64,000 nt of DNA from an uncultured Acidobacteriota bacterium (GTDB lineage: Bacteria; Acidobacteriota; Blastocatellia; RBC074): assembly GCA_963796275.1 (NCBI GenBank), contig CAWCKY010000003.1:448001-512000 (forward strand), given 5' to 3'. Numbering within the stretch: position 1 is the stretch's first letter; each line of letters starts with the position of its first letter. The notes beneath the pieces were generated by a model that saw only the letters and a list, made by a program, of their open reading frames with translations, was not told the origin of the DNA and searched no databases. The position numbers were made by a program, and so were the translations under genes. Below are positions 35,726-53,812 of the stretch, in pieces.

Positions 35726-39829
<4,104 letters not shown>

Positions 39830-39857: not shown

Positions 39858-39918
39858 AGCGGTAGCGAGCGGGCCTCCGGAACTAGAAAAAGAAGGGGGC
39901 AAGTTCGCTACCGCTTTT
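39858..39918 (+). terminator. Inverted repeat followed by a T-tract downstream of the LVIVD cytochrome gene
   Basis: AGCGGTAGCGA...TCGCTACCGCT followed by TTTGTTTT. Confidence 0.6.
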
Positions 39919-40493: not shown

Positions 40494-41495
40494 ATGAGCC
40501 TTCTCGAAGTACGTAACCTCAAGACATATTTCGCGACAAAACGGGGTGAGGCGCGCTCGGTTGATGACGTCTCATTCACGCTCGATCGTGGTGAGACGCT
40601 GAGCCTGGTAGGCGAATCTGGGTGCGGGAAATCGGTCACGGCGCTATCGATTATGCGGTTAGTCTCATCGCCCGGTCGCATAGTCGATGGTTCGGTGCTT
40701 TTCGAAGGGCGCGATCTGGTAAAACTCAGCGAAGACGAGATGCGCAGGATTCGGGGGGATGAGATCGCGATGATCTTTCAGGATCCCATGACGTCGCTCA
40801 ACCCGGTCTACACGGTCGGAGAGCAAATCGCCGAAGCGATACGCCTGCACCGCAGAGTTTCAAAGCGCGAGTCATGGAACCAGGCGATCGAGGGAATGCG
40901 GGATGTGGCAATTCCCGCGCCTGAGGTGCGCGCGAAAAACTATCCCCACGAGATGTCAGGTGGAATGCGCCAGCGGATAATGATCGCGATGGCGCTGGCA
41001 TGCGATCCGAAATTGTTGATAGCCGATGAACCGACGACTGCCCTCGATGTGACAATTCAGGCGCAGATTCTGGATTTACTGACCGAATTGCGCGAGAAGC
41101 GTAATCTGGCGCTACTGCTTATTACTCACGACCTGGGAATTGTCGCTGAAACTTCCGATCGTGTCGCTGTAATGTATGCGGGTAGGATCGTCGAATTGAC
41201 TCGGGTACGTGAACTGTTCAGGAATCCGCGCCATCCCTACACCGAAGGGTTGCTACGATCCGTTCCTCAGTTGGAGGAGCCGAATGGAGAGAAGAAACGG
41301 CGGCTGCATACGATCGAAGGCGTCGTGCCTAATCCTACGAACCTCCCCCCGGGATGCCGCTTCGCGCCGCGATGCGAGCATGCGCGGGAGAAGTGTAGGG
41401 AGGGTGAGATAAGATTGATTGAGATTGATTCGGGGCATTCAACGCGATGTATTCGAGTGAGTGAGATTTATCCTCAATTGCAAACCGCAAGTTAG
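40494..41495 (+). CDS. oppD: Oligopeptide/dipeptide ABC transporter ATP-binding subunit
   Basis: [39 protein letters not shown]-terminal GCRFAPRC. Confidence 0.92.
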
Positions 41496-41743
41496 TTCTC
41501 TCATGCTTCCTCCCCCACCTTGAAGCTGGCAACAGAGATACAGAGAAGAGAAGTGGGCGCGCGCTGTTGCCGCAAGCGCGATTTTTCGAATTTTAGCAGC
41601 ACGACTATTCATGAGTGGGAGGCGAAAATTGTTTCCTTTTTTCGATCGTTCTCCTACAATAAATGCTTGCCAACTCAAAATCTCTGTGGTCTCAATTAGG
41701 CCGTAAGCAGTTTCTATCCACCTCGCCACCGGAGGATGTACTC

Positions 41744-44700
41744 GTGCGATACCAAAAATATTCCGCTCGCATAGTCATTGGAGTGGTGTTACTCACCTGT
41801 TTTGTTTGTTACGACCGTAGCTTGAGCGCTTCCTCTCTGGCGCAAGCAAACGAGACCGAAGCAATTCGCAGTCTGGTCGGGAGATTCTTCGATTTATATC
41901 AACAGAAGGAATTCGATAAATTGATCGCTTTTTGGCACGAGAAATCTCCTTTTCTGGGTAGGAACAAAAAGGCCCTGGAAGAAGAATTTGCTGCATATGA
42001 AAAGATCGATGTGAAGGGCTTTGGCATCCGACTGATGAGGATCGATGGTGATAAGGCGACAGTTAGAGTGACGGTGAATTTAGTGCTGACCAAGGCTAAG
42101 CTCCAAAACATGACAGAAAAGATTTGGAGGGAGGGCATTCTAAAGCAAAACCGTACAATCGAACTAGTCAATCAGAGCGGAAACTGGAAGGTCTGGAAGT
42201 TTGTCATCAGCGAGGAGGAATTGGCAGCTGCAATCATAGCAGCACAGACAGAGGAGGAGCGGAAGGCGTTGATGGAGAAAGAGCCGGAGTTGATTACTTC
42301 CGACCTTGCTTCTGCGCTCTATTCTCAGATTTTATTTGCCTTCGTCAACAACGAAGTCGATTACAAACGCTCGATCACGATCAATGAGCTCGCCTACAAG
42401 CTCGCTGAGCGGATCGGTGATCGATTGGTAATGGCATATGTCCTCATATATACAGGGTACAGCTATGGTTGGATAGGTATGCCGGAAAAATCTCCGGACC
42501 AGGCATTGGAGTACTTTCGAAGTAGTCTTAAAATAGGAGAAGAGCATGGATTTAAGGATGTTGTTCTCAGATCAGTTATCAACTCAGCCATTCTCCATCA
42601 GGGTCTTGGTGAGCTTACGCACGCTGAAGAATATTATCAGAGAGGTCTGAAGCTGCTCGAAGAAGTGGGATCCCAAGATGGGATAATCCAAGTGTTGAGT
42701 AACTTAGGAACCATTCATCAGGTAAAGGGTAATTACGCCACTGCCTTCGAACTATTCTTGAAAAGCCTGAAGATGTCCGAAAGCCAGCTTAAGTCCGGAG
42801 TGAGTTGGGGTCGTCGGTCTAATGTCCTTATAAATATTGCAGGTATTTTCACTGCCCAAGCAAATTTCGAGCAGGCTTTGGCTTATTACCAGATGGCGCT
42901 TGAGGCAGCAGAAAAAGGAATTATGTTAGGAGATATTGAGGCGAAGTCTGAGAAGTTTCATGTGTTGATGGGGATTGGCAATATATATTTGCAACAGGGC
43001 AACCATTCTTTAGCGATGGATTATTTTAAGAAAAGCCAGAAGCTGATAGACGAGTTCGTAGATCAACTACCCGGTTCTAAAGATAGCTACACTTCGATGA
43101 TCAAAAAGGAGATGGCAGATGTATTGGCAGCAGAACATAATCTAGCTCAAGCAATCGCCAATTATAAGGAAGCCCTACAATTGGCAGACAAGGCAGAGGA
43201 TAAAGTCATTATGACATATCAATTGCTGGGTCTAGGCGAAATGTATTTTTTGACAGGGGATTTTCGCGAGGCATTGTCATATTCGGAAAGAGCAAGCGAA
43301 GCTGCCGAAAAACTTGGCCAATACCCTTATATGAATAGTGCTTTGGTAGTAGCCGCGAAAGCCTATCAGAAGCTTGGCCAACAAGAAAAATCTCGTCAGG
43401 CATTAATAAGAGCTATCTATATCACCGAGGAGTTACTGGAGCACTCGACAGGTGACGAATTAGACCTGCAACGCTCTTTTGAACGCGCTGTGGCGCCATA
43501 CCAGGCGATGATTGATTTCGAGGTTGATCAAAAACGATTCATTGAAGCCTTCTCTTACGCTCAACGGACGAAAGGTCGGACACTTCTTGAATTATTGCAA
43601 AATGGCCGAGTTGACATCAAAGCTGCAAATCTATTCGAGCGCGAAAAGGAGCAACAACTAAACCGCAAGATCGTTTCCCTCAACCGCGAAATCACAGCTG
43701 AGAAACTCAAATCTAATCCGAATGAAAAACGTCTGGTCGACGTCGAAGAACAGCTGAAAAAGGCCCGTCTGGAGTTCGAGCGATTCCATACCACTCTTTA
43801 CGCCGCCCATCCTGACCTCAAAGTCCAACGCGGCGAGATTCGACCGGTCACCTTTGACGACGCGGCAGGTCTGATTCCCGATTCCCAGACCGCCATGATG
43901 GATTTCATCGTCACCGACGAGAATGTCCACCTCTTCGTCCTGAGCAAAGACGGGGCCGGCAAGCCGATCTTGAACACATACACATTTAAGATCGAGCGCA
44001 AATCGCTGGCCGAGAAAGTAGAGCGCTATCGCCGCCGAATGGAGAACAGAGACTACGATTTTCAGGCGCTCTCCCAGGAACTCTATGGTTTGCTGATCAA
44101 ACCGGCACACAAGCAACTGCAGGGGAAAACCAATCTCATCATCTCTCCAGATAGCGTGCTGTGGGACTTGCCATTCCAGACTTTGATGTCACCGGAGCTG
44201 CGCTATCTGATCGAGGACGCCGCTATCTCATATACACCGTCACTTTCGGTGCTGAGAGAGATGCAACTGGCAGGCAACAAGAAACAGGCGCGGGCCAAAT
44301 CATCATTGCTGGCGCTGGGCAATCCGGCGCTGGGTAATCGGAGTAAGGAATTGGTTAAGTTTGTGAAGATGGATGCGGAGCTGCAGCCATTGCCGGAGGC
44401 GGCGGCACAGGTGCGCGCATTGGAGGGCCTGTACGGCAAGACGCGCAGCAGAGTGCTGACCGGTGCGGCGGCGCGCGAGGAACTGGTAAAGGAGCAATCG
44501 GGTCAATACCACATTGTGCACCTGGCGACGCACGGGATTCTGAACGACGTCAGCCCGATGTACTCGCACGTGATGTTGTCGCAGACGGCTGGGAAGAGCG
44601 AGGAAGACGGATTGCTGGAGGCCTGGGAGATGATGAATCTGGATTTGAACGCGGACCTGGTTGTGCTGGCAGGATGCGAGACGGCGCGCGGGCGAGTGGG

Positions 44701-44971
44701 AGCTGGGGAAGGGGTGATCGGGATGACGTGGGCGTTATTCGTGGCGGGATGCCCGAGGACGGTGGTCAGTCAATGGAAGGTGGAGGCATCGAGCACGACC
44801 GATTTGATGGTCGAGTTCCACAAGAAATTCAAGACGAGGTACGGCGATCCGCAACGGTCTGTCAGCACCGCGGAATCGATGAGACAGGCGGCATTGAGGG
44901 TAATGAGGAACCCGGAATATGTGCATCCATTCTATTGGGGCGGATTTGTCGTAATCGGGGATGGAAACTAA
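41744..44971 (+). CDS. Signal peptide - NTF2-like - TPR - CHAT (caspase-like protease) protein, copy 1
   Basis: GGAGG before GTG 41744; TPR array; CHAT motifs LIISPDSVLWDLPF, HLATHG, LAGCETARG, SQWKV, HPFYWGGF. Confidence 0.9.
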   Translation: MRYQKYSARIVIGVVLLTCFVCYDRSLSASSLAQANETEAIRSLVGRFFDLYQQKEFDKLIAFWHEKSPFLGRNKKALEEEFAAYEKIDVKGFGIRLMRIDGDKATVRVTVNLVLTKAKLQNMTEKIWREGILKQNRTIELVNQSGNWKVWKFVISEEELAAAIIAAQTEEERKALMEKEPELITSDLASALYSQILFAFVNNEVDYKRSITINELAYKLAERIGDRLVMAYVLIYTGYSYGWIGMPEKSPDQALEYFRSSLKIGEEHGFKDVVLRSVINSAILHQGLGELTHAEEYYQRGLKLLEEVGSQDGIIQVLSNLGTIHQVKGNYATAFELFLKSLKMSESQLKSGVSWGRRSNVLINIAGIFTAQANFEQALAYYQMALEAAEKGIMLGDIEAKSEKFHVLMGIGNIYLQQGNHSLAMDYFKKSQKLIDEFVDQLPGSKDSYTSMIKKEMADVLAAEHNLAQAIANYKEALQLADKAEDKVIMTYQLLGLGEMYFLTGDFREALSYSERASEAAEKLGQYPYMNSALVVAAKAYQKLGQQEKSRQALIRAIYITEELLEHSTGDELDLQRSFERAVAPYQAMIDFEVDQKRFIEAFSYAQRTKGRTLLELLQNGRVDIKAANLFEREKEQQLNRKIVSLNREITAEKLKSNPNEKRLVDVEEQLKKARLEFERFHTTLYAAHPDLKVQRGEIRPVTFDDAAGLIPDSQTAMMDFIVTDENVHLFVLSKDGAGKPILNTYTFKIERKSLAEKVERYRRRMENRDYDFQALSQELYGLLIKPAHKQLQGKTNLIISPDSVLWDLPFQTLMSPELRYLIEDAAISYTPSLSVLREMQLAGNKKQARAKSSLLALGNPALGNRSKELVKFVKMDAELQPLPEAAAQVRALEGLYGKTRSRVLTGAAAREELVKEQSGQYHIVHLATHGILNDVSPMYSHVMLSQTAGKSEEDGLLEAWEMMNLDLNADLVVLAGCETARGRVGAGEGVIGMTWALFVAGCPRTVVSQWKVEASSTTDLMVEFHKKFKTRYGDPQRSVSTAESMRQAALRVMRNPEYVHPFYWGGFVVIGDGN

Positions 44972-47900
44972 TCGATGAGAAAAGTAAGGCGAGAAAATCG
45001 TATGATTACACATTGCTTTACGATTGCATAAATTTTTACCATCGGTGATCACAATAGCAGTTCAGACCAGATTACGGTCAATGAAATTACGCTTGAAAAA
45101 GGCATAATTGTCAAAGCTATAAACGTCGCACTCTCGGGGGCCGCTCAGAGGCGATTGATAACATGCAACTCAGATAATTGAGCTTGCATAATCTTTGTTC
45201 ATTACAATCGAAAGAGGCTTTATGCGTTTCCTCAGATACCTTTCACCTCCTGCCTTCGGCATGCTGCCAATAATCTGCCTTGTATTGAACGGTTATGTCT
45301 TGGGTTTAACGCCGCTGACGCAATCGAGCGATTCCGATGCTATCCGAGTTTTAGTACAGCGACTCTTCGAATCTTATCAGCAGAAAGATCTCGAGAGATT
45401 GCTTTCCTTCTGGGGCGAGAAATCTCCATTTCTGGCCGAGAATAAAAAAGCCCTGCAAGGTGAACTCGCCGCGTATGAGAAGATTTCTGTGAAAGGTTTC
45501 GACATCCGCGACACGAAGATAGATGGCGAGAAGGCTACGCTGAGAGTGTTGGTTGAGGCCGCGGTCACCAGGGCTTACATGGTAAAACCCATTGAAAAGA
45601 TAGAGAAGAAGAGCAAGACGATCGATCTGGTCAAGGAGGGGGGAATCTGGAAGGTCTGGAGATTCACGGCAAGCGAAGAAGAATTGGCTGCTGTTATCGT
45701 TGCCACGAAGACAGAGGATGAACGAAAGGCCTCGATGGCCAAAGAACCGGAGTTGATGACGTCCGACCTTGCTAATGCACTCGCTCGTCAAAGTACATCC
45801 GACCCGGTCTATAAAATGGGCTATCAACATGCGCTTGCGATGAATCAGCTCGCATACGAAATCGCCAGGCAGGTCGGCGATCAATTTGCTATGGCAAACG
45901 CATTGTTGGGCGCTGGATACATTTATGGCTGGCTTGGGACACCGAAAAGATCGGCGGAATTGGCCCTGGAGAGTTTCCAAAAGAGTCTGAATATAGGAGA
46001 AGAGTATGGATTTAAGGAGATCATGGCCAAATCCCTGATCCGCTCTGGCGTTGTCTATACCGTCACAACAGGCGAGTATGCGAAAGCCGAAGAATGTTAT
46101 CAGAAAGGTCTCAAGCTGGCTGAGGAATTGAAAGATCAAGAGCTGTTATTCCTGGCCATGAATAACATGGGCGTCATCCATCGGGAACAAGGCAATTACG
46201 TGAAAGCGCTTGAGCTTTGGTTGAAATGCCTGAAGATGAGTGAAAACCAGCTTGACTCGGGAGTAGATTGGTATCGAATGGCGAGGGCCCTGCAAAATAT
46301 CGGCGGTACTTTCAAAGTCCAACGCAATCATGAACAGGCTTTGGCTTATAACCAACGTGCAATTGAAGCTGCCAACAAAGCAGATACGATGGGAGATCCT
46401 AACGCTAAATTGGTTATAGGGACTGCGCTGGCAAGCATTGGCGATGTATATTTGGAGCAAGATAAAGATTCTTTAGCGATGGATCATTATCAGAAAGGCC
46501 TCAAGCTTGCGGATGAGTTTGTGAATCCGATACTGGTTGCTAAACCCATGTACGTTTTCACAATCAAAGTGCGAATCGGAAATGCCTTGGTTGCAAAAAA
46601 AGATATGGTTCAGGCAATCACAACTTTCCAGGAAGCACTCGAGCTGGCAGAAAAATCAAATAATAAAACTCAGATAGCATATCCTTTATTGCGTCTAAGC
46701 GACGTATATCTATTGCAGGGAGATTATCGCAAGGCATTGGGTTTTGCTGAACGAACTATTAGTGAAGCTCAACAAATCGGTTTCAAAACAAATGTTTTTC
46801 GAGCTCTAGTGATAGCGGCTAAAGCACATCAGAAGCTCGGCCAGCTTGAAAAAGCGTATCTGTCATTGGACAGTGCCATCGACCTTATTGAAGAGTTACA
46901 CAAGCAGTCGGCTGGCGGCGCACTCGACCGCCAGCGTTCCTTCGAAGACTCTGCGGCTCCATATCAAGCGATGATCGATCTCCAGGTTGATCAAAAGAGG
47001 TTCACCGAAGCATTTTCATATGCTCAACGAGCAAAAGGACGAATCCTCTTGGAGCTCTTGCAAAATGGGCGGGTCAATATTGATAAATCAGCTTCTGAAA
47101 CGGAGCGCGAGCGAGAACAGCATCTAGGCAAAAAGATTATTTCACTAAACCGCGAAGTCACGGGTGAGAAACTCAAATCTCAACCTGATGAAAAGCGTTT
47201 GGCCGAGTTTGAAGAGCAGTTGAAAAAGGCGCGTCTGGAGTTCGAGGCTTTCCAAACCACTCTCTACGCCGCCCATCCTGAGCTCAAAGTGCAGCGCGGC
47301 GAGATTCGATCGGTCTCCTTTGACGATGCATCGGGCCTCATTCCCGATACGAAGACCGCACTCCTGGATTTCATCGTCACAGACGAGAATGTCCACCTCT
47401 TCGTCCTGACCAAAAATGCCTCCGCTCAACCGATCTTAAACAACTACATCATCAAGATCGAACGCAAATCGCTGGTTGAGAAAGTAGAGCGCTATCGCCG
47501 CCGAATGGAGAACAGAGACTACGACTTCCAGGCGCTCTCCCAGGAACTCTATGGTTTGCTGATCAAACCGGCACACAAGCAACTGCAGGGGAAAACCAAT
47601 CTCATCATCTCTCCAGATAGCGTGCTGTGGGACTTGCCATTCCAGACTTTGATGTCACCGGAGCTGCGCTATCTGATCGAGGACGCCGCTATCTCATATA
47701 CACCGTCACTTTCGGTGCTGAGAGAGATGCAACTGGCAGGCAACAAGAAACAGGCGCGGGCCAAATCATCATTGCTGGCGCTGGGCAATCCGGCGCTGGG
47801 TAATCGGAGTAAGGAATTGGTTAAGTTTGTGAAGATGGATGCGGAGCTGCAGCCATTGCCGGAGGCGGCGGCACAGGTGCGCGCATTGGAGGGCCTGTAC

Positions 47901-48437
47901 GGCAAGACGCGCAGCAGAGTGCTGACCGGTGCGGCGGCGCGCGAGGAACTGGTAAAGGAGCAATCTGGTCAATACCGCATAGTGCACCTGGCGACGCACG
48001 GGATTCTGAACGACGTCAGTCCGATGTACTCGCACGTGATGTTGTCGCAGACGGCTGGGAAGAGCGAGGAAGACGGATTGCTGGAGGCCTGGGAGATGAT
48101 GAATCTGGATTTGAACGCGGACCTGGTTGTGCTGGCAGGATGCGAGACGGCGCGCGGGCGAGTGGGAGCTGGGGAAGGGGTGATCGGGATGACGTGGGCG
48201 CTATTCGTGGCGGGATGCCCGAGGACGGTGGTCAGTCAATGGAAGGTGGAGGCGTCGAGCACTACCGACTTGATGGTGGAGTTCCACAAGAAATTCAAGA
48301 CCAGGTACGGCGATCCACAACGGTCTGTTACCACCGCGGAATCGATGAGACAGGCGGCATTGAGGGTAATGAGGAACCCGGAATATGTGCATCCATTCTA
48401 CTGGGGCGGATTTGTTGTAATCGGGGATGGAAATTAA
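43988..48437 (+). repeat. ~1 kb near-identical direct repeat (43988-44971 and 47454-48437) encoding the CHAT domains
   Basis: Offset of 3466 bp; only three amino-acid differences seen from IERKSL to the C-terminus. Confidence 0.88.
45222..48437 (+). CDS. Signal peptide - NTF2-like - TPR - CHAT protein, copy 2
   Basis: Same architecture; intact His (HLATHG) and Cys (AGCET) dyad; C-terminal ~325 aa nearly identical to copy 1. Confidence 0.9.
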   Translation: MRFLRYLSPPAFGMLPIICLVLNGYVLGLTPLTQSSDSDAIRVLVQRLFESYQQKDLERLLSFWGEKSPFLAENKKALQGELAAYEKISVKGFDIRDTKIDGEKATLRVLVEAAVTRAYMVKPIEKIEKKSKTIDLVKEGGIWKVWRFTASEEELAAVIVATKTEDERKASMAKEPELMTSDLANALARQSTSDPVYKMGYQHALAMNQLAYEIARQVGDQFAMANALLGAGYIYGWLGTPKRSAELALESFQKSLNIGEEYGFKEIMAKSLIRSGVVYTVTTGEYAKAEECYQKGLKLAEELKDQELLFLAMNNMGVIHREQGNYVKALELWLKCLKMSENQLDSGVDWYRMARALQNIGGTFKVQRNHEQALAYNQRAIEAANKADTMGDPNAKLVIGTALASIGDVYLEQDKDSLAMDHYQKGLKLADEFVNPILVAKPMYVFTIKVRIGNALVAKKDMVQAITTFQEALELAEKSNNKTQIAYPLLRLSDVYLLQGDYRKALGFAERTISEAQQIGFKTNVFRALVIAAKAHQKLGQLEKAYLSLDSAIDLIEELHKQSAGGALDRQRSFEDSAAPYQAMIDLQVDQKRFTEAFSYAQRAKGRILLELLQNGRVNIDKSASETEREREQHLGKKIISLNREVTGEKLKSQPDEKRLAEFEEQLKKARLEFEAFQTTLYAAHPELKVQRGEIRSVSFDDASGLIPDTKTALLDFIVTDENVHLFVLTKNASAQPILNNYIIKIERKSLVEKVERYRRRMENRDYDFQALSQELYGLLIKPAHKQLQGKTNLIISPDSVLWDLPFQTLMSPELRYLIEDAAISYTPSLSVLREMQLAGNKKQARAKSSLLALGNPALGNRSKELVKFVKMDAELQPLPEAAAQVRALEGLYGKTRSRVLTGAAAREELVKEQSGQYRIVHLATHGILNDVSPMYSHVMLSQTAGKSEEDGLLEAWEMMNLDLNADLVVLAGCETARGRVGAGEGVIGMTWALFVAGCPRTVVSQWKVEASSTTDLMVEFHKKFKTRYGDPQRSVTTAESMRQAALRVMRNPEYVHPFYWGGFVVIGDGN

Positions 48438-48506
48438 CAGCGGCTGAAAGGCGGGATGACTTTCACATTGCTCGGGCTTGTATGTTCGCCTATACGGCAA
48501 ATATTG

Positions 48507-49856
48507 TTACTTCAGCCGCCCACTGGTTACACTCGTCAGCAACTGTTTAACGGTCGTCGAGCCCGGATTGGCTTCGAGCAGTGCGCGAAATTCCGCAGCA
48601 GCTTCATCAAATAGACCCATTCGAGCATAAATCACACCGAGCGTAAGGTGGGATTTAGCATAAGCCTCTTTGATCTTTTCCAGAGCATCCACTTCTGATT
48701 GACCCAGCACCCTGAATCGGGCTTCCCGAGCGTCCGGTGAGGGCGATATCATCTCGCGATTATCTCTGATGGCTCTTATCTGCCAGGAATAGCTTCGATC
48801 GCGCGCCAGCGGCGGAGAGGTCCATTCGTTTCCCGTCAGTGTCTTACTCGAGACGATCTCACGCAGATTGTTCCTATAGATCGTAACGGTATAGGCGGTT
48901 GCCCCGCTCACCCGTTTCCAGCGAAAAGTCGGCTGAGTCGTCGCTACAACTGACCCTACCGGGCTGATCGGGATGAATGACCTTTGTCCCCCTCGTTGAC
49001 CCATCAACCGTTTCTGTTCTCCCAGGAGATATGAGAGCTCCGCACTGGCGTTGACGCGTCCATTACGCAGTGCGTCTATAACGGCTGCCTGATGTTCCGA
49101 GGAAACATATCGTATGCCTTCCAGTTCCCCTCGATCATCAAGCGCAACTCGACCGCCCACATCGTTAAGGGCGATCAGGGATTTAGGAGAAATATTCGTA
49201 GACTTTAGCCCTAGAGCGCGATCCTGCAGCTCTCTATTATCCTTACTCAGTTGCTCCAATTGTGCTCGAAGGTCTGTTATTGCCGAGGCGTTATTAGTGA
49301 GAGAATCATTCTGCAGTTGAAGCTTTTTCACCTCGTCCTGCAACCCGCTAATTTTCTCCTGTGATAATATGACAAACCAGATCAATAGTGCTGCGGCAGC
49401 GCCCGTCGCGCCCACTTGAAACGGCATTCGATAAGATCGCCAGAGCACAGATAACTTCTCCCAGAATTGAGGCTGTGGCTCAGAAGCATAAACTTTTCCA
49501 AACGCCATATCCGTCTTGAACTTTCGCAGATCTCGGCAAACATCATCGCACTCCGAGCAGAGTTCCAGATGAACTCCGGCAATCCCGCGTTCGAGCTCGT
49601 CCAGTTCACTGTCGACATATGCCAGAAGCTGATCGAATGATAAATGTTCAAGCTCTTCGTTTTCAGCATGCTTGAGATCGGTCCGCGCGAAGTTGTATGT
49701 CGATGTGAGCAATGTCTTAGAATGGAATTTCCCGTAACACTCTTCACAGGTGGCGAGGTGCTCGTTAAGTACCAGTATTTGCGCCGGCGGCATCGATCGC
49801 CTCCGGTAGCTCGCGATATCTTCTTCTGTGTAGTGTTTAGTCAAGGTATCCCCCAA
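48507..49856 (-). CDS. Membrane-spanning anti-sigma factor with two zf-HC2 motifs, coiled coil, DUF928-like domain and C-terminal TPR
   Basis: HLATCEEC and HLELCSEC; TM AAAALLIWFVIL; heptad segment; PVGSVVATTQPTFRW..YSWQIRA; HLTLGVIYARMGLFDEAAAEF. The start may be TTG at 49844. Confidence 0.8.
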   Translation of the reverse strand: MGDTLTKHYTEEDIASYRRRSMPPAQILVLNEHLATCEECYGKFHSKTLLTSTYNFARTDLKHAENEELEHLSFDQLLAYVDSELDELERGIAGVHLELCSECDDVCRDLRKFKTDMAFGKVYASEPQPQFWEKLSVLWRSYRMPFQVGATGAAAALLIWFVILSQEKISGLQDEVKKLQLQNDSLTNNASAITDLRAQLEQLSKDNRELQDRALGLKSTNISPKSLIALNDVGGRVALDDRGELEGIRYVSSEHQAAVIDALRNGRVNASAELSYLLGEQKRLMGQRGGQRSFIPISPVGSVVATTQPTFRWKRVSGATAYTVTIYRNNLREIVSSKTLTGNEWTSPPLARDRSYSWQIRAIRDNREMISPSPDAREARFRVLGQSEVDALEKIKEAYAKSHLTLGVIYARMGLFDEAAAEFRALLEANPGSTTVKQLLTSVTSGRLK

Positions 49857-50044
49857 TTCCTACAATGGAATTACATAAATCATATATATTAAAGAGAGGG
49901 GTGGTAATGGATGGAAGCTTGATGAGGTCGCGATTATATACAATATTACTGAGAATGTTAAGCAATTTGTCTCCTCGACTTCAAAAAATTTGGGCATCTT
50001 ATCAACAATCGGATCCTCAATGAGATTGGACTTAAATAGTCTTA

Positions 50045-51184
50045 TCAAAAAGATCTGCTCAATTCTTTCATACGTTTAGCCAGAAGTTTCCTGGCAGAAA
50101 GTCGTAATCGCATGACCTTTCGCTTCGTCGTCCCCAGATGCATCGCTATTTTCATATCGTCCCACGGAAGATCGACCCAGATGGCGGCAAACTCTTCCGG
50201 AGGCAAGTTAAGGCACGCGGCGATTTCCACGATCGTGGCAATCCTCAAATCCGCCAATGAAATGATGAGCCCGCGGTCACCGGAATCTCTGTCTATCAGG
50301 TTCAGCAGTAGAGCAGTCCGATGCGGAAGCGGCAGTTTGCATATCTCCCTCCACAGAGTTTGCAGGTAGAGTCGTTGTTCAACTTCTAATTCCATGCTCG
50401 CCTTCTCGGTGGGAGGGGGGGCTTCCTGCAAAACAGCTGGGTCCGTGGTTACTAGTCCATTGAAAGAGTTGCGAATATCGATACCGCTCAACTCGGCGAC
50501 TATATTGATCAGCTGTGTGAACAGCACAGGCCTTCCTGCGGCATTGAAGATCAGCGCGAGCTGCTCGGCCATACTCTCTCGGTGATTTTTACCTGCTTTT
50601 AAATAAGACCGGACAAACTTTTCCGAACTCTCGTTCGATGTCATTACCGATAATTTCGAAAGCTGATCGCGCCAGATCGAAAATCCCCCCACCCATCCGA
50701 TCTTATCATCCTGCCAGAGCGCAAACTCCGTCTGTGTGTTCAGGATATAACGGATATGATCCTTTAACCGGCTATGCTGAAAATTTTGACGGCGCGAGAT
50801 TTCAGAACAAGTGTTATGTGCGATTACCGCGGCATAACTCAGAAAATCTTTTATGGCATGATCGATGTTGCCGTTCTTCAAGTCTTGCAATTTGGTCAGC
50901 AAACGAACGACTACCTCGCTATGCAAATCGTTAATTTGTTGGTCAGGCTTTCCTCCGTTCATTTTCGCGGACTGGGAACTGAGTCTATAGCCGATAATAT
51001 GCCTGACAACCGGATCGATACGCTCAGCGAAGAGTTGAGCCAATATCTGGCGGGATCGCTCGTCGTTCTCCTCCAGTAAGTAGGGGTGCAAGAGAACATC
51101 TATATCTGTGATTCCGCTCTGTCTGTCATCAATGTTCAGAGACATGCTTTCGAGTTTGGACCGAGATTGAGGTATGAAAGACAA
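50045..51184 (-). CDS. Enlarged ECF-like sigma factor (regions 2 and 4 separated by a long insertion)
   Basis: DLHSEVVVRLL..FLSYAAVIAHNTC (region 2); LWREICKLPLPHRTALLL..IAMHLGTTKRKVMRLRLSARKLL (region 4); upstream of the anti-sigma gene. Confidence 0.75.
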   Translation of the reverse strand: MSFIPQSRSKLESMSLNIDDRQSGITDIDVLLHPYLLEENDERSRQILAQLFAERIDPVVRHIIGYRLSSQSAKMNGGKPDQQINDLHSEVVVRLLTKLQDLKNGNIDHAIKDFLSYAAVIAHNTCSEISRRQNFQHSRLKDHIRYILNTQTEFALWQDDKIGWVGGFSIWRDQLSKLSVMTSNESSEKFVRSYLKAGKNHRESMAEQLALIFNAAGRPVLFTQLINIVAELSGIDIRNSFNGLVTTDPAVLQEAPPPTEKASMELEVEQRLYLQTLWREICKLPLPHRTALLLNLIDRDSGDRGLIISLADLRIATIVEIAACLNLPPEEFAAIWVDLPWDDMKIAMHLGTTKRKVMRLRLSARKLLAKRMKELSRSF

Positions 51185-51446
51185 ACATCTGATTTGTAGT
51201 AGTCTGGAACATCCACCTTCGCAAGTTTAAAGATATGCTATTATTTGCTGCCTATTGTATAAGTTGCAGCAATCAGATTTTTATTTTGGGGAATATTCAA
51301 AACGAAGCAATTGTATATCTTTCAACTACTTTGATCAAAGGTGTAAGCAATAACAAAGGGTTTCGATCCGCTTTCGGAATAGATAAATATCCTACTGAAG
51401 GCGATTTCACACAGAAAATGAAGGAGTCGATACTCCGCAAATCCAA

Positions 51447-52445
51447 ATGACAAATCCGCCTCTCGTCGAAATCAAAGACCTCAAAAAATATTTCCCGGCC
51501 TCCCACAGACAACTGGTTCGTGCGGTCGATGGGGTGACGTTCTCGATCGAGCGCGGCGAGACGATGGGGCTGGTCGGTGAATCCGGATGTGGCAAGACCA
51601 CCGTCGGACGCTGCATCTTGAGGTTGATCGAACCAACCGGCGGCGAGATCCGATTTGATGGGCGGGAGCTGGTGCACCTCGGGCGCGGCGAGTTGCGTGC
51701 ACTGCGCCGCCGGATGCAGATAATCTTTCAAGACCCGTATTCGTCGCTCAACCCCCGATTGACGGTCGGCGCGATCATCGGCGAGCCGCTCGTGATTCAC
51801 GGCGTGCGCGTCAGAAAGGCACGGCGCGAACGGGTGGCGGAGCTTATGCATGTCGTTGGGTTGGATCCTGCATATGCCAATCGCTACCCTCATCAATTCA
51901 GCGGCGGGCAGCGACAGCGCATCGGTATTGCGCGCGCTCTCGCACTGAATCCCGATTTCATCGTGGCCGATGAGCCCGTCTCTGCGCTCGATGTCTCCGT
52001 GCAGGCGCAGGTGGTGAACCTGCTGCAGGATCTGCAGGGAAAATTCGGACTGACATATCTCTTCATCTCGCACGGCCTGGCAGTCGTTAAACACGTTTCG
52101 ACGCACGTCGGCGTTATGTATCTCGGCAAGCTGGTCGAACTCGCGCCAGCCGAGGAAATATACGAGAACCCATTGCATCCGTATACAAAGGCTCTGCTCG
52201 AAGCAATTCCTGTCCCGGACCCGGACCACCCAAGAAATGAAAGGGTGAGAGGCTTACCTGGTGATGTGCCGAGCCCACTTGCCCCACCTGCGGGCTGCCG
52301 TTTTCACACACGCTGCCCCAAGGTTATGGAGCGGTGCAGGGTCGAAGAACCACCATATCGCGAGATCGCTCCCGGGCACTGGGCTGCGTGTTTTCTGCAC
52401 GAATCGGATGTACAATCGCAATCAGCCGTTAAGTCAATTCGCTAG
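51447..52445 (+). CDS. oppF: Oligopeptide/dipeptide ABC transporter ATP-binding subunit
   Basis: [57 protein letters not shown]. Confidence 0.92.
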
Positions 52446-53341: not shown

Positions 53342-53812
53342 ATGGCAATGACCAATCGAGAAATTGCCGATATATTTCGTAGACTCGCCGACCTGCTCGA
53401 GTTGCGTGACGAAAATCCCTTCAAGGTGCGGTCATATCGCACGGCCGCCGACACAATAGAAGATACGAAAACCCCGCTCGGCGAACTCATAGCCGCGGGC
53501 GGGGAGGGAAGGTTGCGGGAACTGCCCAGCATCGGCGAGGCGATCAGCAAAAAGATCATCGAATTGCTAGATACGGGAACCTTCAAGCTGTATGAGGAGG
53601 TGAAGGCTGAAATACCGGAGACGGTTCTCGATTTGCTTAAAGTCGAGGGCATAGGCATCAAGACGCTCCAACTTTTATTTCGGCAGTTTCACATTACGAA
53701 CCTCGACGATTTCGCGAAATTTGTAGAAGGGAACGGATTGAATAGCGTTCCGCGATTGAGCGAGAGGGCGAAGCTGCGAATCAGATCGTCCCTCAAGGCG
53801 CCGCGCTACTAG
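53342..53812 (+). CDS. Stand-alone DNA polymerase X N-terminal helix-hairpin-helix domain protein
   Basis: [55 protein letters not shown]; no palm or PHP domain. Confidence 0.8.

Follow-up and report, generated by a model that had tools for sequence, protein, structure and literature searches.

The DNA analyzed here, referred to as the window, is a stretch of 64,000 nucleotides from contig C3 (CAWCKY010000003.1, positions 448,001 to 512,000) of the 9.46-Mb genome (G000) of an uncultured Acidobacteriota bacterium (GCA_963796275.1), and it carries, between two peptide transporter genes, a four-gene module of two predicted exported TPR-CHAT proteases, an anti-sigma and an atypical sigma factor. 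The gene map is based on a listing of open reading frames (ORFs) and a Pfam domain scan of the window. The oppD-like and oppF-like genes for peptide ATP-binding cassette ATPases (40494..41495 and 51447..52445, both on the + strand and both matching ABC_tran and oligo_HPY) form the left and right borders of a 9.95-kb insertion (41496-51446), in which the two TPR-CHAT genes (+) converge on the anti-sigma and sigma genes (-). An earlier note, made from the sequence, had described two CHAT proteases facing a sigma/anti-sigma pair within about 10 kb of seemingly AT-rich DNA that splits oppD from oppF, genes it took to be normally adjacent, and this description holds. The GC content of the insertion is 0.490 compared to a genome mean of 0.543 (standard deviation 0.021), a value as low being found in 0.85% of same-size genome windows, and among 18 same-family relatives an oppD match is present in 16, with oppF no more than 1.5 kb from it in 13 and within about 200 nt in 10. 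The remaining three consist of a contig end, a gap of about 2 kb, and one relative lacking oppF within 1.5 kb. In a genome of the same genus (G001) the order cytochrome-oppD-oppF-Yip1-GMC is intact and the insert is missing; the orthologous sigma gene (61% identity) lies on another contig amid formate dehydrogenase-like genes, a label read from the translations.

The segment had also been called an island, and of that term the insertion stands and the foreign mobile element does not. The site is empty in relatives and the composition is deviant, but no integrase or transposase ORF was found in the ORF listing of the window, the longest word shared by the flanks is 8 nt, and the nearest relatives of the inserted genes are in the same genome and genus and are not foreign. 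The dispersed CHAT paralogues of the genome are also of low GC content (0.49-0.52). A foreign island with mobility genes was rejected on these grounds. Mobility genes are lacking and the low GC belongs to the gene family as such, which makes a move inside the lineage a better fit than recent transfer from a foreign source; the oppD-oppF gap was probably entered by such a move.

The first protease gene, CHAT-1 (41663..44971, +), has its likely start at GTG 41744, and the second, CHAT-2 (45195..48437, +), at ATG 45222. Both products contain Pfam TPR and CHAT domains, the latter (PF12770) scoring 217 and 218 bits where the Pfam cut-off is 24. Alignment of the dyads places the catalytic residues at H957/C1005 in CHAT-1 (codons 44531-44533 and 44675-44677, +) and H935/C983 in CHAT-2 (47997-47999 and 48141-48143, +), intact in sequence in both. 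With the starts given, the N-termini are signal-like, with peak 19-residue hydropathies of 1.74 and 1.99, and each signal-like peptide ends in a small residue before Gln (S-L-A-Q in CHAT-1); the export call rests on hydropathy and the family pattern. The signal-like sequences and intact His/Cys dyads, which the note had also claimed, are therefore seen here and, as described below, are kept family-wide. Matches of the N-terminal domain to NTF2/SnoaL-like folds in the Atlas score below 0.9 and are a lead only.

The two proteases are 67% identical overall, yet they differ at only two positions in the last 320 residues. The near-identical catalytic tract (44000..44970, +) is 94-100% identical to CHAT-2 (offset +3466 nt) in 100-nt bins up to 44900, whereas the TPR regions are about 60-65% identical. 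Another tandem pair in the genome is 96% identical over its last 300 nt, and dispersed paralogues are about 80% identical in the catalytic region. Since tandem copies are near-identical in the catalytic part while dispersed paralogues are not, gene conversion between tandem copies likely keeps their catalytic domains uniform and lets the sensor regions diverge, an assembly artefact being the alternative. The genome contains 36 CHAT-domain ORFs or fragments, and the close clade comprises eight loci including the two here. There is turnover in this clade, with a frameshifted member at C3:865399-868615 and a 115-codon fragment at C3:676411-676758. A family of secreted proteins of about 330 residues with similar N-termini recurs beside dispersed CHAT genes (C4:428210-430820, C6:1311093-1313749, C3:869064-870047 and C3:1537034-1538062), and these are possible substrates or partners.

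The anti-sigma (48507..49856, -) matches zf-HC2 above the cut-off and TPR_14 just below it. Its predicted layout is two HxxxCxxC zinc motifs, a membrane helix at about residues 146-166, a coiled stalk and a small beta hairpin domain, followed by an outer part made up of an exposed loop, an Fn3/Ig-like domain and a short TPR resembling the C-terminal domain of MtxA (MtxA-C) and DUF928. It thus has the pattern of ZAS membrane anti-sigmas, HxxxCxxC with an upstream His and then one membrane helix, and as the only hydrophobic segment starts near residue 146, the extracytoplasmic domain proposed before stands as a prediction. Across 60 anti-sigma sequences H7, H70, H95, C99 and C102 are invariant and zf-HC2 is matched in 53, and the profile matches the zinc domains of ChrR, DdvA (PDB 8rot, 8rlz) and RsiW. 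The top Foldseek match of the outer domain is MtxA-C (PDB 4z29; E 6e-5, 15% identity), with Atlas scores of 0.90 and 0.88 for the likeness to MtxA-C and DUF928. These share an Ig/Fn3-like domain followed by a short TPR, a likeness of fold only from which no function is transferable, and we do not claim membership of DUF928, which one of the 60 family members matches.

Within the predicted periplasmic loop that precedes the Fn3 domain lies a conserved L-[M/L/R]-[G/S/D] motif, here Leu284-Met285-Gly286 (48999..49007, -). Among the 60 sequences Leu is found in 54, Met, Leu or Arg in all 60 and Gly in 48, the flanking residues being variable, and the loop is modelled as coil (pLDDT 69). A Runella CHAT protease requires Leu-Gly at P1-P1' within an exposed loop (10.1101/2021.06.07.447441), and Craspases cut at L|D, M|K or A|S, that is, after Leu, Met or Ala (PMC11106740). 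We regard the loop as a candidate protease site and no more. The residue at the proposed P1 position is Met in 40, Leu in 16 and Arg in 15 (71 pairs and the window).

The sigma factor (50045..51184, -) is group-4-like and atypical. It has no Pfam match, and TIGR02937 scores 24.3 bits, below its cut-off of 42.9. Its AlphaFold model (mean pLDDT 84.6) contains ECF-like (extracytoplasmic function) sigma2 and sigma4 folds at about residues 28-133 and 267-376; model residues 28-133 superimpose on SigW (Z 8.8, root mean square deviation (rmsd) 2.3, 84 aligned) and residues 267-376 on region 4 of sigmaE (Z 8.4, rmsd 2.1, 69 aligned). The top Foldseek rows for the whole model are sigma factors, none at E below 0.001. 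A canonical ECF (group 4) sigma has a short linker between sigma2 and sigma4, whereas here about 130 residues including a folded insert (insert and linker at about 134-260) separate them. The protein therefore has the two domains of a canonical ECF sigma without the short linker or a score above the cut-off, and to judge from sequence and model its long-insert architecture appears to be undescribed and unclassified. A resemblance of the insert to the delta subunit of RNA polymerase (E 0.08 only) is not claimed. The protein search gave 196 matches to the family, whose named relatives are from Blastocatellia and other Acidobacteriota; there are six copies in the source genome, and a sample of 150 other genomes from across the phylum includes 11 with the family. 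The subclade of the window sigma has the recognition helix TKRKVMRLRL where the family has TRQQVINLRK, and further members with genomic context were limited to G001, among 86 other genomes of the order, and to locus L146 from the metagenome scan. CHAT is not mentioned in the available main text of the ECF reclassification (PMC7826278).

The association of the three genes is conserved across the phylum, well beyond the window. A genome scan gave 341 sigma relatives, and the linkage counts below refer to the best 80 of these 341 loci. An anti-sigma match lies beside the sigma in 79 of the 80 (78 by a stricter script), an adjacency from which we infer that the anti-sigma binds and inhibits its neighbouring sigma. 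CHAT genes accompany 55 of the 80, in 54 cases at no more than 1 kb, and in 46 of the 55 the arrangement is convergent as in the window. The figure becomes 46 of 52 for loci with at least 4 kb of downstream sequence, and among the 25 loci that lack CHAT there are 19 whose sequence runs out within 4 kb of the anti-sigma or sigma. As controls, CHAT occurs in 6.5% of random 21-kb windows of the source genome and beside 5 of its 45 ordinary sigma genes, and so the earlier expectation that CHAT genes and this anti-sigma family would be linked elsewhere is confirmed. The dyad is kept in 72 of 73 linked CHATs, the sole miss being a fragment, and a hydrophobic N-terminal segment in 58 of 62 full-length ones; these two counts include loci L111-L145, of which some were sampled twice. 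A tree was built of 65 CHAT domains, taking every second linked protein together with the source genome's own long CHATs. In it the eight close paralogues including those of the window nest inside the sigma-linked clade, apart from most CHATs of the genome (FastTree support 0.97).

Related arrangements occur elsewhere in the source genome. At C6:1725357-1743608 a sigma/anti-sigma pair belonging to the same family diverges from four tandem CHAT genes, two of them apparently broken, and the site also holds a Ser/Thr kinase gene and another anti-sigma, which is split. Of 12 weakly scoring sigma matches that were checked, five have CHAT within 10 kb, and other CHATs adjoin short sigma-like genes from different families, each of which has a putative anti-sigma as well (C7:970572-975803, C4:984931-989827, C3:643823-648765, C1:1217798-1223098, C4:623409-629048 and C3:1538866-1547215).

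Based on these data we propose that the module is a split, CRISPR-free counterpart of the DdvS/DdvA system of Myxococcus xanthus, in which the exported protease would act as the site-1 protease of the anti-sigma, and we give this reading about an even chance of being correct (roughly 0.5). It draws on the linkage, the shared predicted compartment, the intact dyads, the loop motif, the position of the window CHATs inside the sigma-linked clade, the promoter-like motif before most linked CHAT genes, the presence of an RseP gene in the genome and the precedent of DdvA. The DdvS/DdvA system likewise combines an ECF-type sigma, a zinc anti-sigma domain, one membrane helix, a periplasmic TPR-CHAT with His/Cys, and RseP; truncations of DdvA lacking TPR-CHAT are substrates of RseP, CHAT was proposed as the site-1 protease, and DdvA-like proteins were found in Myxococcota and one Comamonas (PMC11506125). 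DdvA fuses TPR-CHAT to the anti-sigma, while the protease here is a separate, predicted exported protein encoded on the opposite strand, and no locus has a fused anti-sigma/CHAT match. The present system also differs in its two zinc motifs, its Fn3/TPR outer domain, the large sigma insert and its occurrence in an acidobacterial family, and no CRISPR-Cas or CBASS genes occur among the flanks scanned. With DdvA the site-1 idea could not be tested, because the protease is joined to its own substrate in a single chain whose signal has yet to be identified (PMC11506125). Here the two are separate proteins and a cut site is predicted, which makes the idea testable.

In the mechanism that we put forward, the anti-sigma would be expressed from its own housekeeping-type promoter and hold the sigma at the inner membrane via its zinc domains. 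The variable N-terminal and TPR regions of the proteases would then sense an envelope or extracellular ligand and so align the His/Cys dyad, the tandem copies amounting to two sensors on one homogenized catalytic domain. A cut after Met285 would remove the Fn3/TPR cap, RseP would cut within the membrane, and the sigma would be freed to transcribe CHAT genes and envelope genes. In most relatives the sigma would, in addition, restrain itself by activating an antisense promoter that reads into the sigma gene.

The last two steps of this scheme derive from promoter-like motifs. An unbiased search upstream of the 55 linked CHATs gave a bipartite motif, AAG..G with TATTAC 21 nt after the first A, which precedes 36 of the 55 genes (leave-one-out) compared to 0.5% in shuffles, and which is also found before four sigma genes and genes for outer-membrane beta-barrel and other exported proteins. 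We infer that it is the promoter of the sigma family. When the model, trained on CHAT upstream regions only, was scored at the sigma/anti-sigma junctions, the motif was found antisense to sigma at 37 of 79, in the sense direction at none of the 79 and never in shuffles. Of 48 sites with the TATTA core, 24 also have AAG at the expected upstream position, so that it is the whole element which is kept. The simplest reading of the junction motif is a sigma-dependent antisense promoter that would brake the sigma; in SigH/RshA the brake is of another kind, the anti-sigma being expressed in sense from a promoter that depends on the sigma (PMC3489674). The antisense motif lies just past the sigma stop codon, for example in L032, L033, L036, L048, L070 and L076, and weaker copies occur at two junctions of the source genome (C1 near 1296013 and C2 near 445101). 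In L044 (15890-16010), and also in L059, L083, L084 and L102, the motif is a near-perfect inverted repeat, one strand of which serves CHAT while the opposite one serves a small exported protein, probably of the outer membrane. A motif search before 95 sigma genes gave nothing above shuffles (information content 11.2 against 9.6), and the CHAT-type motif occurs at only 5 of the 95.

The window itself contains a different element. The candidate promoter of CHAT-1 (41626..41664, +) consists of TTTC(C/T)TTTT and TA(C/A)AAT at fixed spacing and is common to four dispersed CHAT paralogues; five of the six strict matches genome-wide precede CHAT-1 and these paralogues, from which the pattern was derived. 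It overlaps a weak terminator-like hairpin at 41617-41637, and may be the target of a rewired sigma or else a housekeeping promoter copied with the genes. In the gap between the sigma and anti-sigma genes, a sigma-70-type promoter match (49933..49961, -; TTAACA-17-TATAAT, 11/12) is aimed at the anti-sigma; it is the best of 14 sites, the chance expectation being 11.3 sites scoring at least 9. In G001, neither the family motif nor the CHAT-1 element was found upstream of its close CHAT homologues, two of the five upstream regions being cut by contig ends. The leaders of three of these homologues (L182, L183 and L185) have in common, by eye, a short TCGGCC element, and a similar TCGG element occurs in leaders of CHAT paralogues of the source genome.

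The promoter data also bear on a second explanation, which we consider somewhat unlikely, namely that the proteases are outputs of the system. The sigma would induce exported CHATs whose substrates are other proteins, either secreted or of the envelope, and the Fn3/TPR domain would sense the signal itself or bind the protease as an inhibitor, with the L-x-G loop as a pseudo-substrate. This would account for a promoter-like motif before most linked CHATs, which form separate transcription units that are convergent in most linked loci, for the same motif before outer-membrane beta-barrel and other exported proteins, and for close CHAT paralogues that are scattered among secreted-protein genes. 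However, a plain member of the regulon need not stay within 1 kb of the anti-sigma, as CHAT does in 54 of 80 loci, when the rest of the neighbourhood changes freely, and in DdvA both parts are fused into one chain (PMC11506125).

A third explanation assigns CHAT the role of a co-receptor that shields the anti-sigma from other proteases until a ligand removes it, protease activity being secondary. RseB shields RseA in a comparable fashion, and a large periplasmic TPR protein could do so in trans; the TPR-CHAT of DdvA blocks cleavage by RseP, with its active site in the resting state (PMC11506125). Almost no variation is seen, however, in the dyad and its surroundings (72 of 73), an argument for catalysis under selection, and we regard shielding as the main function as quite improbable.

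The same can be said of an anti-phage alarm, in which the TPR regions would recognize a periplasmic protein of phage origin and defence genes would be induced by the sigma. DdvS is a precedent in that it controls a CBASS-CRISPR island (PMC11506125), diversification of the sensor with homogenization of the catalytic domain is a pattern known from conflict systems, and a few flanks hold conflict-type genes (EAD5-trypsin, caspase with DACNV). Against this, PADLOC gives only generic TPR matches, none catalytic or system-specific, and the genes flanking 20 loci are a mixed set in which no defence system recurs, envelope and secreted proteins being common and conflict-type genes few. Genes preceded by the motif also encode mostly envelope proteins. 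The defence role suggested in the earlier note is thus not supported, and an alarm of this kind is in our view very doubtful.

Several observations weigh against the exported CHAT proteases being the site-1 enzymes of the anti-sigma. The TATTAC motif of the family is absent before either CHAT and at the junction in the window. Of the nine CHAT-gene loci of the genome that are closest by BLAST, seven have no sigma of this family nearby, six of the seven being 60-68% identical, so that the proteases may have other substrates. The P1 residue shows no covariation with residues beside the catalytic His and Cys, the top columns being far from the dyad and apparently phylogenetic, and Craspase cut sites are not conserved in sequence, and position may outweigh sequence (PMC11106740); for these reasons the motif match is weak evidence. 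Anti-sigmas of loci without CHAT still keep the loop motif. No CHAT is nearby in six of the 52 well-flanked loci or within 11.5 kb at L146, which has a 59%-identical sigma and an anti-sigma, and in the source genome a long CHAT gene stands beside only three of the six sigma copies. The linkage counts overstate independence because the genomes are kin, and the correlation between pairwise distances of anti-sigma and CHAT (rho 0.80, 70 trios) is expected from shared ancestry alone.

The type III-E Craspase (Csx29, Csx30, CASP-sigma), which the earlier note took as a precedent, is one insofar as a TPR-CHAT under TPR control cleaves a separately encoded sigma inhibitor; it is cytoplasmic and triggered by Cas7-11 on target RNA (PMC10028731), and the periplasmic DdvA/DdvS is the closer match. 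Csx29 has no export signal, while here signal-like N-termini are present in both proteases and in the great majority of relatives (58 of 62), and the inhibitor is predicted to span the membrane. No Cas7-11 or CRISPR neighbours were found among the 11 ORFs scanned in 35.7-57.3 kb, a genome-wide cas search not having been made. DegS/RseA/RseP and PrsW/RsiW carry out two-step regulated intramembrane proteolysis of a single-pass anti-sigma, and the proteolysis proposed here would follow the same two steps. The site-1 enzyme would differ, being a soluble caspase-fold cysteine protease with TPR sensors rather than a PDZ serine protease (DegS) or a membrane metalloprotease (PrsW). We found no literature description of a sigma/anti-sigma/CHAT trio encoded by separate genes, subscription journals and bioRxiv supplements lying outside the search, and CHAT is not mentioned in the available text of a preprint on protease-effector modules (PMC12642450).

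The essence of a wider proposal is that these modules form a new class of trans-envelope switch, in which exported, sensor-diversified proteases would act as site-1 enzymes at the L-x-G loop of a double-zinc anti-sigma and so release a long-insert sigma of an undescribed type, which would turn on its own protease and limit itself via a conserved antisense promoter at the sigma/anti-sigma junction, the recognition helix and the promoter of the dispersed eight-protease family having here been rewired together. Taken as a whole this is speculative and, in our estimation, unlikely. In a major soil phylum with little-studied signalling the family nevertheless offers an apparently unclassified sigma architecture, a predicted promoter and a putative conserved antisense promoter, and TPR-gated exported proteases coupled to a sigma could serve as engineered sensors.

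The surroundings of the insertion include three further features. A 156-residue stand-alone helix-hairpin-helix protein (HHH_8, HHH_5) resembling the N-terminus of family X polymerases is encoded at 53342-53812 and was not seen at the matching position in G001 among ORFs of at least 150 residues. A 21-nt inverted repeat at 39858-39915, terminator-like or resembling a repetitive extragenic palindrome, follows the gene for a 1367-residue multiheme cytochrome c with LVIVD repeats (35726-39829), which lies upstream of oppD in a neighbourhood that is kept in several relatives.

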